DNA of 64,000 nt, from assembly GCA_951406725.2 (NCBI GenBank), contig OX597818.1, positions 80,352,001 to 80,416,000 of the forward strand. Direction: 5' to 3'. The notes beneath the pieces are model-generated. The model was given only the letters and a program-made list of their open reading frames with translations, did no database searches and was not told the DNA's origin. The stretch comes from Octopus vulgaris (lineage: Eukaryota). Made by a program: the position numbers and the translations under genes. Of this stretch, positions 2,948 through 43,297 are shown piece by piece; position 1 is the stretch's first letter; each line of letters opens with the position of its first letter.

Positions 2948-3583
2948 TCTTTTATTCGTTTCACTCATTTGACTGCAGCCATGCTGGAGTACTACCTTTA
3001 GTCGAACAGATCGACCCTTTGTAAGCCTAGTATTTATTCTATCAGTCTCTTTTGCTGAACCACGAGGATGTAAATACACTAACATCGGTTGTCAATGTGT
3101 TAGAAAATATCGCAAGATGCACGGTAACACACCGTTGCATCGGAGTCAAGTCTCGGTGGGTGGAAAATGTTCCTGAGAGCGCCTTGGGCGCATGTAGGAA
3201 CAAGAGACTTACATCACCCGAGGAAAGAAGTTTAGAACTATTGAGGTGAGATCGGGGACGAAAGAAGAAGCTAGATGTAATTCTGCAACCACTTTGAAGA
3301 ACGACAACTTTTTCTTAATCCCCAGCTATCGCGGTCAACGCCTTGCCAAGATAAGGGTGCTGAATGGGCCGCCAGAAATATCCATTACCTGATTAGTGGT
3401 GGCCGTCTTGGCAGGTTTAGAAGACGAAGTCACTTGTTTCCGTCTACCAAATCCACTCACAAGGCTTTGGTCGGCCCGAAGCTATACTAGAAGACACTTG
3501 TCCAGAGTGCTATGCAATAGGACTGAACCCAGAACCATGTGGTTGGTAAGCAAGCTACTTACCATAGAGCCACTCGTGTGCCT
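2948..3583 (-). mobile_element. SINE family B interrupted by a LINE ORF1 fragment
   Basis: SINE 3' half at 2948-3095 and 5' half at 3436-3583 flank foreign sequence. Confidence 0.85.
3097..3433 (+). repeat. 337-bp near-identical copy of 7560-7896 (LINE ORF1 fragment)
   Basis: Direct comparison: GT(G/T)TAGAAAATATCGCAAG through GAAGACGAA(G/A)TCAC in both places. Confidence 0.95.
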
Positions 3584-4035: not shown

Positions 4036-4879
4036 TATATACCGCTTTTTTTTTACCACTGATATAACCTTGGAGCCTTCGCGCTGACTCCTACGCAAAG
4101 CCTCATTGTAAAAGAAACAGATTTTTAACCCGCACAGAAGGTCATATATTTAGTAGTGCTAAATTAAGTATTTTGCAAAATGAAAGAAAGAAAAAAAAAA
4201 ACCAAAACCAAAAACAAAATAATTTTCTTAAAATCCAGTCAGCTACATGATATTTAATGGAAGAATATAGAATTCCATTTGCCAAAGAATTATTAGAAAA
4301 ACTACAAAGAGAGAAAATCCATTGTGACATATTGACGCCTCTTCAATTTCCTTTTTTTAATACACAGATATTGTAGACAGATTTTGCTAATAATGTAGGT
4401 TATGTCAAAAACTACAGACGAGAAAAGCTGGAAAACTAAACAAGATTATTAAAGAAAAAAATATTTATTAAAGCTGAACTCTAAAAATCTCTTACTAATC
4501 TAGAATGTATAGAATGCTTGTTAAGGAAAAGAAAGAAGCCTGGTTGAACAATTAGTGTAAACAGCATTTTTATAGCTTTGTATTAATAACATTTTCCACC
4601 AAAATATTAACTTACGTTATAAGGTGAAGGTAATAAAACTGATCATGTCTGGCTAACAGTATATATGTGTGCATTCATATATATTTTACATGATGTACTT
4701 TTTTTTACTGTTTTAATAGTTTTAATCATAGGATACTATATTCAGCAGTTTAGGTTTTCGTATTGGCTCTGGTACTTATTTTATCGATCTCTCTTTATCG
4801 GAGATGGGGCGCTAATTTAACGTTTTTTTTTTATTTAGAGTAGGCGTCAGCAAACTTCTTCTATCATTGATAGCTTATC

Positions 4880-7188: not shown

Positions 7189-7386
7189 ATGGCTGATAAA
7201 GAAGCCATCATAATGTTCAACAAAGGAACGCGCTACTTGTCGGAAAAAATTGAGAACGTGTAAATAATCGAGAATATATGGATATCGAGTGGCCTAAGCT
7301 TCATGACGTCACCGAGGCGAGAAATATTTCGTTTTTAAGCAACGTCAAAACTTTCGGTATCGACAACAGCAACAGTAGCAGCAATG

Positions 7387-7422
<36 letters not shown>

Positions 7423-8370
7423 ACAATAATAACGCCTCTGCGTCTTTTGCATCAGCGGCAGGAAATATGGAGAGTTACCACATAGATGAAGAATTAAAAC
7501 TGGCAAGAAAAATTGTAAAAAGAAATGAGAGAAGGGTAGCTCTAAACCCTCCATCCGACGTGGTAGAAAATATCGCAAGATGCACGGTAACACACCGTTG
7601 CCTCGGAGTCAAGTCTCGGCGGGTGGAAAATGCTCCTGAGAGCGCCTTGGGCGCATGTAGGAACAAGAGACTTACATCACCCGAGGAAAGAAGTTTGAAA
7701 CTATTGAGGTGAGATCTGGGACGAAAGAAGAAGCTAGATGTAATTCTGCAACCACTTTGAGGAACGACAACTTTTTCTTAATCCCCAGCTATCGCGGTCA
7801 ACGCCTTGTCAAGATAAGGGTGCTGAATGGGCCGCCAGAAATATCCATTACCTGATTAGTGGTGGCCGTCTTGGCAGGTTTAGAAGACGAAATCACAGTG
7901 TTGGAGGTCAAGAAACTACCTAAGCAAAATTGGTTAGGTATAGGTATGGAACTGATCTTGCAATGCAAGCAGGATCATATCGACCAGCTACCCGATCTAA
8001 TCGATCTACTGGATGGTACTCACCTGTTGGTGTTAGTGGAGAGTAGAAGGCCAAGATGCCACACATGTGGATCTGTAAATCACTTAAAGGCTTTCTTCCC
8101 TGAAACAAGGAAAAATAAAGTCCCACTACTGCTAACATTACAAACACCACAAGTGCAAAATCATAAACAAGTGCTCCAAAGTCCTACACCTACTCCCACA
8201 CCCACGCTCACACCCACTCCCAAACCAAGAAAAAGAAAGAGTCTACCTCCGGTTGCCACGGAAAAGCAAGCTTCTCCTGAATGCTCTTCCTCCCAAACCA
8301 ACATCAACTGCAATGACATGGAGAAGGAAGAGCTGAACGATCAATGGATCACAGTAATCGACCAGAATAT
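7189..8370 (+). pseudogene. LINE ORF1 (gag-like, zinc knuckle) remnant, frameshifted
   Basis: RRPRCHTCGSVNHLKAFFP is a Cx2Cx4Hx4(C>F) knuckle followed by a Pro/Thr/Lys-rich tail; frameshifts and stops; no ORF2. Confidence 0.75.
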
Positions 8371-8684
8371 CGCTGGTCATAATGCATTTGTTCGGATTAT
8401 TGTAGCTTTCGAATGATGTTGCTCCACTGGTTAGGCGGGTAGGCCAACATTACCCCAAGAACGAAACACCAGTTCCTTGCAGAGTTACCCATTCACAGCT
8501 GAATGGTCTGGAGCAACATGAAGTGAAGTGTTTTGTTCAAGAACACAACACACTGCCGGTCTGAGAAAGAAAATCACGATCTTGCAAGCCTGACATAACA
8601 TATATTCCATTCTTTCGAATCTGAAGTGTATAACCACAAAATGATCAACAAATAATAAACAACAGGTTATAATATACAGAACTG

Positions 8685-14585: not shown

Positions 14586-15304
14586 ATGTACATATATCTC
14601 TTATTATAAAAGGCAGATTTTATCTGCCTCCCTTTGGGAGTTATACAAATCTACAATATAGGATTTCTTCAATTACAATTTACCTAGCAGTTTTAAGAGT
14701 AGAATGCATCGCGTCATGCCAGGTCCAGTTTTTAAAATTTAAACTCCAATTAAGCAAAATTTACAGAAAACTCACATTCTGGTGTGTGTGTCAAATGCTT
14801 TTCTTAGTCTGGTTTACACCACACGCAAACGCACACACACAGTGGGCTACGAATAAAGTGAAACTAATTCAGTGTGTTGACAGGTAGACAATAGAATGCG
14901 ATGACGACTATGACGCTGATAGATACATGAGTAAAATGTATGGGAAGCTAACACATAAGAGTGAGTGAAAATGTTCTTGGAAGAGAGTAAATAGCCAGGG
15001 AGTAATAAAGTAAACATACACTCATACATACATACATACATACATACATACATACATACATACATACATACATACACACACACATACATACATACACACA
15101 CACATACATACATACACACATACATACATACATACATATATATACATACATACATATACATACATACATACACACACACACATACACACACACACAGTAT
15201 TGAAGCTTGAGAACAATCAGATACATCTGCAACACATCTGTTGAAAATATTATTGTTCACACACATACATATACATATATACATACAGAGAGACAGACAG
15301 ATAG

Positions 15305-15335
<31 letters not shown>

Positions 15336-15457
15336 ATCCAGCATGGCCACAACCTCAAGGCTGAAACGTATAAAACAATAACAGAATATAAATGTGTGCA
15401 TGTGTGTGAGAGAGAGAGTGTGTGTGTATGTATGTATGTATGTATGTATATATATAT

Positions 15458-16050
15458 AATAATGCGGTTTTTTCAACAGCTTGAACTAAATGTCAGAGGG
15501 GAATGGGATAAACTACTTATATTAACTTGCTATAAAAGCAGGTAGTAATTTTATCTTGTCTTTATTCATAGTGCAAGTTTTGAAGAGTGCATTTCGATTT
15601 TAACAGCTATTTTTTTCAAAGCTATATTGGAAGTAACAAAGGAGCATATTTGGCATATTTTGCTTTATGAGTTCAATAAAGACAACAACGCAACGGAAAG
15701 TACAAGAAATATTAATGCAGTATATGGGGATTGGACAATAAGCGTAAGGCAGTGTCAATGGTGGTTCCAGAAATTCCGAGCCATAAACTACAGCCTAGAA
15801 GACGAGCCTCATCCTGAAAGATCTGTAGAACTCGACAAGGACATCCTGAAAACCCTGGTGGAACAAAATCTCATCGTAACTGTTGAGGAACTAGCAGAGA
15901 AGCTTGGATTTGGTCATTCAACCATTCATTGAGACCTGTGTGCTATCGGAAAAGTCAGCAAATTGGGTCAATGGGTTCCTCACGAACTTTCCGAGTCTAA
16001 TTGCATGCAGAGAGTGAATGTATGCTTTTCTTTGCTGTCACATCTCACCA
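15458..16050 (+). pseudogene. mariner transposase 5' fragment carried inside the Helitron
   Basis: HILLYEF..WFQKFR..SLEDEP HTH region, in-frame stop, then GQWVPHEL motif; catalytic domain absent. Confidence 0.9.
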
Positions 16051-16067
16051 CTACTGCGCTATGTATA

Positions 16068-16702
16068 TCTATATATATAAAACTGTAGTTGTGTGAGTGT
16101 CTGTCCCCTTCGATTTAGATTCCTAACTACTCCCACATTTTGCGGTGCAGTTTAACCAAATTCGGGTAGCTTATAGTCGTGATTCATATCGAGCCCGTCT
16201 GACTATTAGCGCGCGTCTACGATGAGTCTACAATTTTAAAAATAATTTAACATAACTTTTTATTCCATTTTAATGCATAATTTTTCGTGTGTCGATGGCG
16301 GCGGAGTTGGCGTCCACGCTCACACCTGCACCTGTGGGGAAGGGAGTGTAAGGAAATCAACGTCGTAATGCGTTGTCAAGGAGACCAGCGTTCTTTTAGA
16401 ACAACGACTTCATGGCTTGAAGACACCAAAACAGAAATGGCTAAGAAAGCGTCTACATGAGTCTACGATTTAAAAAAAATTTACCATCGTTTTTTTTCCA
16501 TTTTAATGCATTTTTTCGCTATTATATAAGGAAAGTAACTCTCTAAAAATGTCTACGATGAGTCAACGATTTAAAAAAAAATTACCATCATATTTTTTCC
16601 ATTTTTAATGCATTTTTTGCTATTTTTTGGCTATAACTCTCTAAAAATGCTTATATAGTTATTTCCCTTACAAACCCGAGCAACGCCGGGCGATACTGCT
16701 AG
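16068..16702 (+). mobile_element. inner short Helitron
   Basis: A|TCTATATATATAAAACTGTAGTTGTGTG 5' end; internal ~120-bp repeats (TCTACGATGAGTC.ACGATTT); shares the hairpin-CTAG end. Confidence 0.85.
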
Positions 16703-16885: not shown

Positions 16886-16987
16886 TGTATGTATGTATGT
16901 ATGTATGTATGTATGTTCTCTTTCCTTTTCCGGTCACTGGACTGCAGGATGCTGAAATATCGTCTTCATTATTTGAGCCAATTATAA

Positions 16988-17433
16988 GGTGACGAGCTGG
17001 CAGAATCGTTATCACGCCGGACGAAATGATTAGCGGCATTTCGTCTGACATCACGTTCTGAGTTCAACTGCCGTCGGGGTCAACTTTGACTTTCCTCCTC
17101 TTGGGGGTCGATAAATTAAATACCAGTTACGCATTGGGGTTGATGTAATCGACTGGTCTCTTCCCTCAAAATGTCAGCCCTTGTGCCTATAGTAGAACGG
17201 ATTATTTTAGCCAATCATATTGATTTCAAATTTTGGTACAAGGCCAGGACGTACGAGGGAGGAGCTAAGTCGATTACATTGATCTCAGTATCCAGCTGGT
17301 ACTTATTTTATCGACTCCAAAAGGATGACGGGCAAGGTGGTCTCAGCGGAATTTGAACTCAGGACGTAAAGACGGACGAGATGTCACTAAACATTTAGCC
17401 AGGCCTACTAACAATTCTGTCAACTCATCACCT
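16988..17433. mobile_element. tail-to-tail pair of SINE family A
   Basis: + copy 16988-17203, - copy 17219-17433. Confidence 0.85.
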
Positions 17434-17986
17434 TATTTTAGCCGATAATATTAAAACCAATTCTTATTTTAGTTTGGCACCAATATATGATCAATATGGT
17501 AGCTACAAGTATTTGAGGGTAGGTATTTTGGGGATTGCGGTACCTCTATGGAGAGTAATGTAATCCCTAAGTCACAGTTAGAGTTTGACCTGACGTTCTA
17601 CATGAGTAATGAGGTATCATTTATTGTGCACACTACTAAACTGATAACAGTGTGTAGGCAAATGGTTTTTGGATTCTGATTTCATTCAGAACCAAAAAAA
17701 AAAAAGAAAACGATGTTGGTTCTAGAAGAACATTTGTTCATAGTGGCCTGGACTGCTGCATCAAATTATGCTTGTCGAGTAGAATCAAATTAACACTGGA
17801 GTTTGAGGTAATCCGATGCTGTTACGTTAAGATGATTACTTCAGTGTAACAGATGAGCCACTGGGAGAGGCTCTAATCTCTCGAGCGAAAACATGAAAGA
17901 TATTTCGTTTTGCAATCATAATATACTGCCAATTATATTAAAGGTTTATCAGTCAATACTGTATCCTATCTTTCTTTGCGTGCGCA

Positions 17987-22926: not shown

Positions 22927-23483
22927 GAGTGTATGAGAGCAGTGCATGCCATCAAAATGACACTGGGGTAAAATATACGAAGCCCAGTATACCCATCATG
23001 ACTACCCGTCTGATAAGGCTACACCAGGCACATGTATCACAACCAAATGTGCGCGACATGGTGATCTCATATCAAGATAAACAGCGCATGACCTTGCAGG
23101 TGGGGCCCAGTCAGAATTTTATTCTGGTCGAGTAGCCCATCCTACTCAAAAGGTCCCGGAATAAGGATTGTTTAAGGATGTTGAACGAACCATCCATGTT
23201 TCCAAAGGTGAATTATCCTAACCTCTAAGAATTCCTTTCAACACACAGCTATGATGCTCCCCTACTACTTCTGCTTGTGATCAGAGATGCACATATCGTC
23301 AGCCACTAAGGGACATGGTCAACTGGTTAAGGTCAAACAACTGATAAGCAAATCTGTGGTAATGAGCAGAATATTTGCTGTAGCCCATCTTTTATACCAA
23401 GACAAAACAATGTACATGATAGCACTTCCAATCAGTTAAGATCAGGAGCCATGCGAGCTACTGCCTGGTACTTCATCAAGGCA
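22927..23483 (-). mobile_element. non-coding element bounded by (TAA)n, copy 1
   Basis: Bounded on both sides by (TTA)n; diverged tandem copy follows; strand inferred. Confidence 0.8.
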
Positions 23484-23507
23484 TTATTATTTATTATTAT
23501 TATTATT

Positions 23508-24062
23508 GAGTGAGCGAGCAGAGCATGCCATCAAAGTGACACTGGGGTAAAATATACGAAGCCCAGTATACCCATCATGACTACCCGTCTGATAAGGGTA
23601 CACCAGGCACATGCATCACAACCATATGTGCGCGACATGGTGATCTCATATCAAGATAAACAGCACATGACCTTGCAGGTGGAGCCCAGTTAGAATTTTC
23701 TTCAGATCGAGTAACCCATCCCGCTCAAAAGGTCCCTGAATAAGGGTTGTTTAAGGACGTTGAACGAAACACCCATGTTTCCAGAGGTGAATTATTCAAA
23801 CCCCAAAGAATCCTTCTCAACACATGGTTATGATGCTCCCCCACTACTTCTGCTCGTGATCAGAGACGCACATATCGTCAGCCACTAAGGGACATGGTCA
23901 ACTGGTTAAGGTCTAACAACTGATAAGCAAATCTGTGGTAATGAGCAGAATATTTGTTGTAGCCCATCTTTTATACCAAGACAAAACAATGTACATGATA
24001 ACACTTCCAATCAGTTAAGATCAGGAGCCATGAGAGCCCCTGCCTGGTACTGCATCAAGGCA
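23508..24062 (-). mobile_element. non-coding element bounded by (TAA)n, copy 2
   Basis: Colinear with copy 1 end to end. Confidence 0.8.
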
Positions 24063-37710: not shown

Positions 37711-38096
37711 TTATTCCAAATCACTGCTTGGAGCTGATGCTGTTACTTTTATTCTGACCAGGCGATCCAGTAGTGCAATTCAGTCACTGATGTTGACTGT
37801 ATTTCTAGTTAAAGCTACGGTTTTGAATCTGTCCAGGGTTATCTCTCTTTGCTATTTCTCATTGAGGAAGACTACGGAGCCAGAAACGTGCATCTGGTAA
37901 TGTGGACAGATACGGCATTTTAGACATTTTACCATAAGAGAGAATATTTTCTACGCGCTAACTGCAGCAAATTTGCCCTTGTAAGTTAAAATATGTTGCA
38001 AACATTGCAACTAACCTAAATTTTATTTATTCCTAATCACTGTTTGTCGCTCAGGTATGATCTTTCTTTCTTGGCTCGACTGCCGGCCGCGAAGCA

Positions 38097-38907
38097 TCTC
38101 TTATTATAAAAGGCAGATTTTATCTGCCTCCCTTTGGGAGTTATACAAATCTACAATATAGGATTTCTTCAATTACAATTTACCTAGCAATTTTAAGAGT
38201 ACAATGCATCGCGTCATGCCAGGTCCAGTTTTTAAAATTTAAACTCCAATTAAGCAAAATTTACAGAAAACTCACATTCTGGTGTGTGTGTCAAATGCTT
38301 TTCTTAGTCTGGTTTACACCACACGCAAACGCACACACACAGTGGGCAACGAATAAAGTGAAACTAGATGTAATATTTGTTTCTCTCTATCACGCTGATA
38401 GATACATGAGTAAAATGTATGGGAAGCTAACACATAAGTGTGAGTGAAAATGTTCTTGGAAGAGAGTAAATAGCCAGAGATAGTGATTTGAGGAACACTC
38501 ATACATACATACATACATACATACATACATACATACATACATACATACATACATACATACATACATACATACACACACATACATACATACACACACACAC
38601 ATACATACATACACACATACATACATACATACATATACATACATACATACACACACACATACACACACACACATACACACACACACAGTATTGAAGCTTG
38701 AGAACAATCAGATACATTTGCAACACATCTGTTGAAAATATTATTGTTCACACACATACATATACATATATACATACAGACAGACAGACAGATAGACACA
38801 CACACACACACACATGATCCAGCATGGCCACAACCTCAAGGCTGAAACATATAAAAGAATAACAGAATATAAATGTGTGCATGTGTGTGAGAGAGAGAGT
38901 GTGTGTG

Positions 38908-38939
<32 letters not shown>

Positions 38940-40089
38940 TGTATGTATGTATGTATGTATGTATGTATGTATGTATGTATGTATGTATGTATGTATATAT
39001 AATAATGCGGTTTTTTTCAACAGCTTGAACTAAAAGTCAGAGGGGAATGGGATAAACTACTTATATTAACTTGCTATAAAAGCAGGTAGTAATTTTATCT
39101 TGTCCTTATTCATAGTGCAAGTTTTGAAGAGTGCATTTCGATTTTAACAGCTATTTTTTTCAGAGCTATATTGGAACAGCCTAGAAGACGAGCCTCATCC
39201 TGAAAGATCTGTAGAACTCGACAAGGACATCCTGAAAACCCTGGTGGAACAAAATCTCATCGTAACTGTTGAGGAACTAGCAGAGAAGCTTGGATTTGGT
39301 CATTCAACCATTCATTGAGACCTGTGTGCTATCGGAAAAGTCAGCAAATTGGGTCAATGGGTTCCTCACGAACTTTCCGAGTCTAATTGCATGCAGAGAG
39401 TGAATGTATGCTTTTCTTTGCTGTCACATCTCACCACTACTGCGCTATGTATATCTATATATATAAAACTGTAGTTGTGTGAGTGTCTGTCCCCTTCGAT
39501 TTAGATTCCTAACTACTCCCACATTTTGCGGTGCAGTTTAACCAAATTCGGGTAGCTTATAGTCGTGATTCATATCGAGCCCGTCTGACTATTAGCGCGC
39601 GTCTACGATGAGTCTACGATTTTAAAAATAATTTAACATAATTTTTTATTCCATTTTAATGCATAATTTTTCGTGTGTCGATGGCGGCGGAGTTGGCGTC
39701 CACGCTCACACCTGCACCTGTGGGGAAGGGAGTGTAAGGAAATCAATGTCGTAATGCGTTGTCAAGGAGACCAGCGTTCTTTTAGAACAACGACTTCATG
39801 GCTTGAAGACACCAAAACAGAAATGGCTAAGAAAGCGTCTACATGAGTCTACGATTTAAAAAAAAATTTACCATCGTTTTTTTTCCATTTTAATGCATTT
39901 TTTCGCTATTATATAAGGGAAGTAACTCTCTAAAAATGTCTACGATGAGTCAACGATTTAAAAAAAATTTACCATCATATTTTTTCCATTTTTAATGCAT
40001 TTTTTGCTATTTTTTGGCTATAACTCTCTAAAAATGCTTATATAGTTATTTCCCTTACAAACCCGAGCAACGCCGGGCGATACTGCTAG
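38097..40089 (+). mobile_element. composite non-autonomous Helitron, copy 2
   Basis: Same termini as 14597-16702, A|T target; inner TC start at 39454; ~158-bp deletion in the mariner fragment. Confidence 0.85.
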
Positions 40090-42753: not shown

Positions 42754-43297
42754 AGTTTAACAATGAGTATGTCTGCATTTCGCCCGTCTTTGCGTTCTGA
42801 GTTCAAATTCCGCCGAAGTCTACTTTGCATTTTATCCTTCCGGGGTCGATAAAATGGGTATCAGTTGAGCCCTGGGGTCGATGTAATCGACTTAGCCCCT
42901 CCCTCTTGTGTCAAAATTTGAAACCGATATTTAGAACACCACGGAACATTCTTGTATACGTGTCATTTAGAATTTTCTTCATCGGAGCTGTAAGTGTCCA
43001 CGTTATCCAACCGTAATATACAAAAGTTTAACAATGAGTATGTCGGATGGAATGCTTAGCTGCATTTCATCCGTCTTTACGTTCTGAGTCCAAGTTCCGC
43101 CCAGGTCGACTTTGCATTTTATTCTTTCGGGATCGATAAAATGAGTACCAGTTGATCATTGGGGTCGAGGTAATCGACTTACCCTTGCCTCCCTGTGTCA
43201 AAATTTGAAACCGATATTTAGAACACCACAGAACATTCTTGTGTACGTGTCATTTAGAGTTGTCTTTATCGGATTTGTGAGTGTTCATGTTATCCAA
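42754..43297 (+). repeat. tandem duplication (~270 bp unit) of a SINE A fragment plus flank
   Basis: GTTTAACAATGAGTATGTC at 42754 and 43026; GAAACCGATATTTAGAACACCAC..CATTTAGA twice. Confidence 0.9.

Follow-up and report, generated by a model that had tools for sequence, protein, structure and literature searches.

The 64,000 nucleotide stretch of Octopus vulgaris DNA analysed here (the window) is part of contig C5 of a 2.8-Gb genome and contains two segments, copy A and copy B, which begin like one Helitron, carry a piece of a mariner transposon and end with a second Helitron that has its own start. The question raised by this locus is whether such a segment moves as one unit and, if so, how its parts were joined and which enzyme moves it. 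The explanation that we hold with good confidence is that the segment belongs to a non-coding chimera of about 840 copies, with a start from the Helitron family X, an end from a small Helitron and a dead mariner between them, and that it is likely copied in trans by the RepHel of family X.

Layout of the two copies and source of the parts

The features are given below (positions are those of the window).

14597–16702, + strand: copy A (2106 bp), the chimeric non-autonomous Helitron in its full-length subtype, at an A|T site within a (TA)n tract
14597–14866, + strand: outer 5′ end, from the RepHel-encoding Helitron family X (6.8–7.0 kb); 97–98% identity to L184, L347 and L348 over 270 bp
14867–14998, + strand: segment common to the non-mariner chimeras L121, L124 and L138, by sequence comparison
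14999–15457, + strand: cargo of (ACAT)n, (CA)n and (TATG)n tandem repeat tracts, a 60-bp stretch and a SINE-like tail
15458–16048, + strand: 5′ half of a decayed mariner, 76–87% identity to free copies
15627–15932, + strand: mariner HTH frame, 101 codons, TTG start and TGA end (Pfam HTH_48, E 3.2e-20)
16049–16067, + strand: 19-bp linker between the mariner piece and the inner element, only in composites
16068–16702, + strand: inner non-autonomous Helitron, 635 bp, supplier of the 3′ end; 3506 exact starts
16675–16702, + strand: 3′ palindrome (16675–16690) and terminal CTAG, the sole such palindrome in the element
38097–40089, + strand: copy B, subtype with a ~157-bp mariner HTH deletion, 1993 bp, at an A|T site in a dispersed repeat

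The alignment of copies A and B shows homology that starts at a TC (positions 14597 and 38097) and ends at a CTAG (16702 and 40089), with an A on the 5′ side and a T on the 3′ side of both copies and with unrelated flanks. It thus bears out the coordinates, the 5′ TC, the 3′ palindrome with CTAG, the A|T targets and the unrelated flanks given in an earlier note on this DNA. The parts named there (outer 5′ end, microsatellite, mariner 5′ fragment, and inner Helitron with its TC at 16068) were all recovered as well. The common 3′ core displays a divergence of 0.55% (908 columns). Copy B lacks about 157 bp, corresponding to positions 15633–15789 of copy A, which is most of the mariner HTH. The copies also differ in microsatellite length and by a variant at positions 271–311 of A; this variant, together with the ~157-bp deletion, makes them different subtypes. 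The element is a chimeric Helitron, i.e. one Helitron's 5′ end and the whole of a second Helitron, separated by a dead mariner piece. Its ends are of different Helitron origin, family X for the 5′ end and the inner family for the 3′ end.

The first 282 bp of copy B are 96–99% identical to five RepHel-encoding family-X elements. Near the outer 5′ terminus (14611–14629) there is a hairpin with an 8-bp stem that folds better than shuffled sequences (z −2.9). By folding it is clearer than the 3′ palindrome, which is imperfect and has no advantage over shuffles (−4.5 kcal/mol, z −1.0). The adjoining segment at 14867–14998 is related, in inverted orientation and with 77–81% identity, to the 5′ region of a third Helitron family (L182/L183), and comparison with L138 suggests that it is likely a piece of an older family-X 5′ untranslated region. 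Among the loci compared, the 60-bp cargo stretch is found only in composite copies. The cargo tail (about 15335–15400), which is SINE-like, is 74–80% identical to dispersed repeats in ten loci.

The inner Helitron is a variant with a 39-bp deletion and ~100-bp subrepeats. Its exact start has 3506 matches genome-wide, and no mariner piece precedes 22 of the first 30. The family is present as a standalone element, mostly in a 513-bp form, and the composite contains the 635-bp variant, whose 39-bp deletion joint has 718 exact matches genome-wide (none for the reversed control). Among 100 listed sites of the 635-bp variant, six fall outside the lists of composites (four on C1 found by script and two on C2 by visual inspection). 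Of these, the first is a composite, and the second is a composite whose inner start has received an extra element. A further three (L311, L313 and L315) are standalone and display the ancestral allele at position 102 together with other shared alleles, and the sixth (L312) has the composite allele at 0.3% distance. The ancestral alleles mark the standalone copies as sisters of the composite's inner element and not its products, and the inner donor subfamily therefore predates the capture. The 3′-end donor thus existed independently, as seen from the 22 of 30 inner starts and the standalone sisters. In L243, L312 and L313 a 506-bp inner variant is followed directly by the 635-bp variant, which is possibly a dimeric unit or a repeated insertion at the inner start.

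The junction between the mariner piece and the inner element has 698 exact matches genome-wide. No match was found for the reversed controls of this junction, of the inner start or of the outer start (698, 3506 and 3317 matches, respectively), and the matches are therefore not due to chance. A recapture estimate on C1, where 68 junction matches and 71 exact WVPHEL matches overlap in 59 cases, gives about 840 copies genome-wide. This supplies the count of composites against the inner element that the earlier note had called for, 698 exact junctions (an estimated ~840 copies) to 3506 inner starts. Twenty fetched loci with the mariner piece, 14 picked for having no exact junction and six for odd frame lengths, are all composites or derivatives of them.

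Ninety-six distinct full copies were extracted; these are not a random sample, as many were chosen as best matches. The composite copies (94 aligned) differ by 0.6% from their subtype majority and by 1.4% pairwise, and the family is young, high-copy and non-autonomous. There are three main subtypes: the full form, one with the 157-bp deletion and one with a 296-bp deletion. The first 30 copies on C1 comprise eight full copies, one with the 157-bp deletion and 21 of a third class, which is defined in this count only by absence of the other two markers. The composite-type allele at position 39555 accounts for ~24%, 14%, 3% and <1% of the summed contig depth in organisms A, B, C and D, where depth is not equivalent to copy number; this is a weak hint of a recent burst limited to a lineage. 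The contigs of the other species are too fragmented and do not show the junction.

Other repeats are present in the window. Two inverted copies of a dispersed 160–200 bp repeat, presumably a SINE, adjoin the 3′ side of copy A at 16984–17436, and many more occur window-wide. Short repeats of 97–98% identity are at 3097–3433 and 7560–7896 and at 607–713 and 4578–4684; the first pair overlaps the long frames 7254–7712 and 7856–8416, neither of which has a Pfam match. Tandem duplications are at 22937–24061 (~560 bp, 93%) and 42773–43297 (287 bp). Other than the mariner frame, seven long frames in the window have no Pfam match, and an Rfam scan of the window gave no matches.

Joining of the two ends and the mobilizing enzyme

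A Pfam search shows RepHel loci to be numerous; 20 were taken first and 22 more were inspected afterwards. The outer 5′ end of the composite opens two of the first 20 (L184 and L185). Nineteen of the later 22 are family X, with the 5′ motif seen in 17. Family X displays a Helitron_like_N domain in L185 and a PIF1 domain in L359. Its 3′ region is its own and unlike that of the composite: the 3′ ends are 89–93% identical over the last 28 bp and the region upstream is different, as is expected for a chimera. L184 and L185 are 98.6% identical, which, set beside the 1.4% pairwise divergence of the composites, indicates that family X and the composite are similar in age. None of 19 inspected family-X loci has an uninterrupted RepHel frame (the longest is 1351 aa).

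The exact outer start has 3317 matches genome-wide. Behind 22 of the first 30 on C1 the mariner is absent. Among 20 such loci, retrieved as long stretches (L121–L140), 15 have a segment of the inner family in the same orientation, and the remaining five terminate in another region with identical last 33 bp. At least four other chimeric families among these loci carry the family-X 5′ end with different cargo, and in four loci a 290–510 bp fragment of the family-X helicase lies behind the inner-family segment. Formation of chimeras is routine among elements with a family-X 5′ end. The earlier note had proposed that a new 5′ end was paired with a downstream 3′ end. The pairing of ends stands, but the 5′ end was pre-existing, being 96–99% identical to family X, and it would be better to say, from these identities, that a pre-existing 5′ end acquired a new 3′ end.

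The termini, the A|T targets without duplication, the copy number, the youth of the family and the source of each part are matters of observation. The order of the parts suggests the route by which they were joined, and it fits a read-through model. A small Helitron would have been located just 3′ of a truncated and decayed mariner. A family-X 5′ end without its own terminator would then have landed upstream, either through a 3′-truncated insertion or through a join at a microsatellite. RepHel would nick at the 5′ TC, pass through the cargo and the inner TC, and halt at the first hairpin with CTAG, which is that of the inner element. Recent amplification may have followed, with internal pieces shed to give the three main subtypes and with the 5′ module exchanged with other family-X elements at least once. 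By analogy, RepHel would mobilize the element through a rolling-circle intermediate.

It had also been claimed that the steps of capture are visible in this segment. This did not hold, as no donor locus and no bypassed 3′ end came to light. When the linker was searched for without an adjoining inner element, the one match was a mutated composite, and a fuzzy scan of the fetched loci for the linker gave one unrelated partial match. At up to four mismatches the only 3′ palindrome within the unit is the terminal one. Absence of a bypassed 3′ end argues against plain end-bypass of an intact element, which would retain one; the alternatives are that the upstream copy was 3′-truncated, that a deletion came later, or that the template was switched at the microsatellite.

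A somewhat unlikely alternative, but the one that survives best, is assembly by recombination or template switching, in which a pre-existing non-autonomous element of family X became fused, at or close to the (ACAT)n tract, with a locus containing the mariner and the inner Helitron. The first ~400 bp of the composite are common to non-mariner chimeras and the match stops just before the microsatellite; lack of a bypassed 3′ end within the unit also agrees with such a join. In addition, the first 313 bp of the third subtype are 97% identical to the family-X RepHel element L359, after which the shared segment follows. This 5′ variant indicates at least one exchange with a family-X element and not deletion alone. 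A filler-DNA route has been argued for insect Hel1 (PMC6544945), which also speaks for this reading. On the other hand, the order of 5′ end, host DNA and whole Helitron in one orientation is what read-through predicts, and an inner-family segment lies in the same orientation in 15 of the 20 further elements that begin with the family-X 5′ end. Neither route excludes the other.

The mobilizing enzyme could also belong to another young RepHel family (L186–L200) and not to family X, which we consider improbable. In its favor, all 15 inspected copies of this family are ~6.15 kb in length, are 97.6–99.8% identical and have stop-free frames of 1081–1744 aa. The family's 5′ end is similar to the outer as well as the inner start of the composite (over the first 22 bp), and its last 36 bp are 83–89% like those of the composite. 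However, the composite 5′ end is 96–99% identical to family X over 270–313 bp and only ~75% identical to L186–L200 over 30 bp. Moreover, few inner-only copies derive from the composite, although the start of L186–L200 is equally like the inner start. The RepHel of family X is thus preferred as the enzyme that copies the composite. As a separate observation, many L186–L200 copies (e.g. G000:C4:115355000-115364900) have stop-free RepHel frames of 1549–1744 aa, and judged by these frames the family is a candidate naturally active animal Helitron.

The mariner passenger and transposition of the unit

In the captured mariner piece the left inverted repeat is short of its outermost 18 bp, and nothing remains past the WVPHEL linker region. 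A protein search for its source gave a single relative (P0001, 78%), and free copies were located through L134 instead. These are ~1.27 kb long, with terminal inverted repeats in 19 of 30. The captured piece differs by 7.4% from the majority sequence of the free copies, close to the 9.0% average of 28 free copies themselves; hence it was probably old when captured, and these distances suggest that it had probably decayed before capture. Insertion of a mariner into a Helitron, or mobilization of the unit by mariner, is out, given the shortened left repeat (by its outermost 18 bp) and the missing right half.

The earlier note had pointed to a mariner HTH open reading frame at 15627–15932. The Pfam HTH_48 match supports the domain, but the frame opens with a TTG at the place of the ATG seen in 22 of 30 free copies, and contains no in-frame ATG. 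The WVPHEL sequence lies 3′ of a TGA. The whole HTH frame is kept in eight of the first 30 copies on C1 (in order of position). A marker in the untranslated region, limited to two of the three subtypes, has 249 near-exact matches compared with the ~840 copies. A frame without a start codon that is deleted in most copies looks like a passenger, and as judged from the sequence the mariner piece appears to be one, with nothing that indicates a function. Domestication of the HTH in the manner of SETMAR or F-box A2 does not agree with the missing ATG and a whole frame in 8 of 30 copies.

That the HTH was kept because it is useful, as a dominant-negative repressor or a recruited domain, is very improbable. 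Most of the 150 best protein matches have an open frame, and seven of 19 distinct changes in full-length copies are synonymous compared with an expected 20–25%, but this excess is small and biased since 30 of the loci were picked by best protein match. Mariner HTH domains have been recruited elsewhere (PMC12062965), which is a point in favor of use. The absence of an ATG, the eight whole frames among the first 30 C1 copies and the 249 marker matches relative to ~840 copies all speak against it, and the mariner piece is therefore best regarded as a passenger.

The target sites are those expected of Helitrons. Ninety-four of the 96 full copies begin with TCTC or TCTT. Canonical HLE1 elements end in CTRR with a palindrome of 16–20 nt located 10–15 nt from the end, and the composite has CTAG, 16 nt and 12 nt, respectively. 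A T follows all 96 copies and an A precedes 87; six of the nine non-A copies are directly behind the CTAG of another Helitron. When the 71 microsatellite or tandem sites are set aside, all 25 clean sites are A|T, and no duplication exceeds 3 bp except for one within a TATG tract. A Helitron 3′ end precedes six of the 96 copies, and an outer 5′ end follows eight. Membership in HLE2 (Helitron2/Helentron), elements that display short terminal inverted repeats and T|T insertion (PMC11417382), is rejected as the sites are A|T and the two ends are not complementary.

In each of four runs, 10–21 contigs from the target repeat of copy B leave the reference at 38104 and continue like the right flank. 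These read-through contigs, which start near 38057, represent the empty site in paralogues of the dispersed repeat. Empty A|T sites, for which the earlier note had asked, are thus seen in paralogues of the copy B target in 4/4 runs, but no orthologous empty allele was found. The right flank of copy B resembles its 5′ start over 8 bp, but this does not reflect a target duplication: every copy begins in this way, and the empty paralogues contain the 8 bp once.

The named refuting condition, homology of flanks past the termini, is not seen in most copies. Hundreds of dispersed copies with the same termini, the empty paralogues and the standalone inner element uphold the claim that the segment was transposed as a unit and did not arise by segmental duplication. 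Two composite copies in L068/L070 and L101/L105 (G000:C1, 7.55 Mb and 8.52 Mb) have identical flanks and represent a true segmental duplication that includes the element.

For the family as a whole, segmental duplication, a local hop between A and B, or an assembly artefact is scarcely credible in view of the 698 junction copies and the 25 of 25 clean A|T sites. Copies on C1 do cluster (11 of 80 neighbour gaps are <50 kb compared with 1.4 expected), and two minority alleles of the inner part are common to A and B, for which short gene conversion between them is possible. Against this, seven of the 11 close gaps are <5 kb, the flanks are unrelated, most subtype-diagnostic sites distinguish A from B, and both subtypes are also present on other contigs; Helraiser shows no local hopping (PMC4778049). 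The 23.5 kb distance between A and B that had been remarked upon is correct, but gives no evidence of a local hop, since they belong to different subtypes, each found on other chromosomes. Copies A and B are not parent and daughter, and both are products of a transposing chimera.

Start-site use and relation to known Helitrons

From 174 distinct 3′ flanks, 59 were kept after excluding microsatellite and tandem sites. These display a T, a W-rich run, and then A at +10 to +12 (81, 75 and 64%). The A count at these positions is 2.20, compared with 1.41 in shuffles of the same flanks, and none of 2000 shuffles reaches 2.20. In an earlier subset of flanks the motif was present in 28 of 48, compared with 48 of 1244 background sites. 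The motif mirrors the elements' own 5′ ends. No literature on a Helitron target motif resembling the 5′ end was found, but the Helraiser structure paper may discuss it, and novelty is therefore unproven.

L245 (G000:C5:128509567) and L246 (G000:C3:36836472) are 1.14-kb derivatives with a normal CTAG end. They start at one internal TC in the mariner untranslated region, which is preceded by A and has only these two exact matches. This TC is a cryptic start, similar to the outer start. Escape through the inner start is infrequent (about 1 in 100), and a poor fit to the enzyme of family X is the likely reason for this low use. Head-to-head outer 5′ ends, a few to ~160 bases apart, are present in L018, L022, L028, L232, L242 and L249, and head-to-tail Helitron joins are many.

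Tentatively, and with some doubt, the targets may resemble the elements' own 5′ end, such that Helitrons pile up at each other's ends and the swapping of 5′ ends acts as a modular assembly line, with the outer start used in ~840 copies, the inner start about once in 100 and the cryptic start twice. If targets are self-like, Helitrons would accumulate at each other's starts and ends, and the start of one enzyme-coding family would be fitted to many bodies of cargo plus inner element.

Several known systems are comparable. HelibatN539 of vesper bats has one Helitron's 5′ end and another's 3′ end around captured DNA (PMC4224331), and was explained by the model of Tempel et al. 2007 (as cited in PMC4224331). 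Two Helitron ends likewise flank captured DNA as a single mobile unit in the octopus composite. Unlike HelibatN539, which has a known parental locus and a piece of the KCNQ5 gene as cargo, the composite has no donor found, a cargo of decayed transposon and microsatellite, and ends from different families.

In Helraiser from Myotis the 5′ end is essential, the 3′ end is dispensable, and read-through gives new 3′ ends (PMC4778049). The composite is similar in its 5′-driven transposition, replaceable 3′ end, A|T targets, an AT-rich preference that is strongest on the 3′ side, and new ends through insertion beside other Helitrons. The Helraiser text, as far as available, gives AT-richness only, whereas the 3′ flank of the composite has a positional A-run at +10 to +12 like its own 5′ end; also unlike Helraiser, two copies start at a cryptic 5′ site within the cargo.

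Nesting and stepwise capture in maize Helitrons give internal termini, and internal sequence is lost with time (PMC3288121). The composite shares the nested origin of internal termini and the internal loss. Maize elements mostly keep extra 3′ pseudo-termini, but the composite keeps an extra intact 5′ start and a single 3′ end. For O. vulgaris, 178 recent Helitron insertions in eight families and abundant Tc1-mariner are reported (PMC13282606); the available portion gives counts and no family structure, and the composite may already be a consensus in that repeat library.

The composite is of a known kind, a compound Helitron, its mechanism is known, and no principle is changed by it. It is a well-documented case in a group for which no Helitron family structure was found in the literature searched. 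As a passenger, a piece of dead mariner was multiplied into several hundred new copies when its own family had long since decayed, and repeat annotation may thereby show a false recent burst of mariner. If the self-targeting reading is true, the composite provides a natural count of start-site competition within one molecule. The target motif, the rare use of the inner start and the start born within the cargo bear on the open matter of how RepHel chooses its start and target sites. The motif and the start-site hierarchy are the parts most worth testing, and young RepHel families are present in the genome. One 5′-end family heads several chimeras in this octopus, and the composite is a clear but ordinary case of the way in which Helitrons likely take up and spread bystander DNA.
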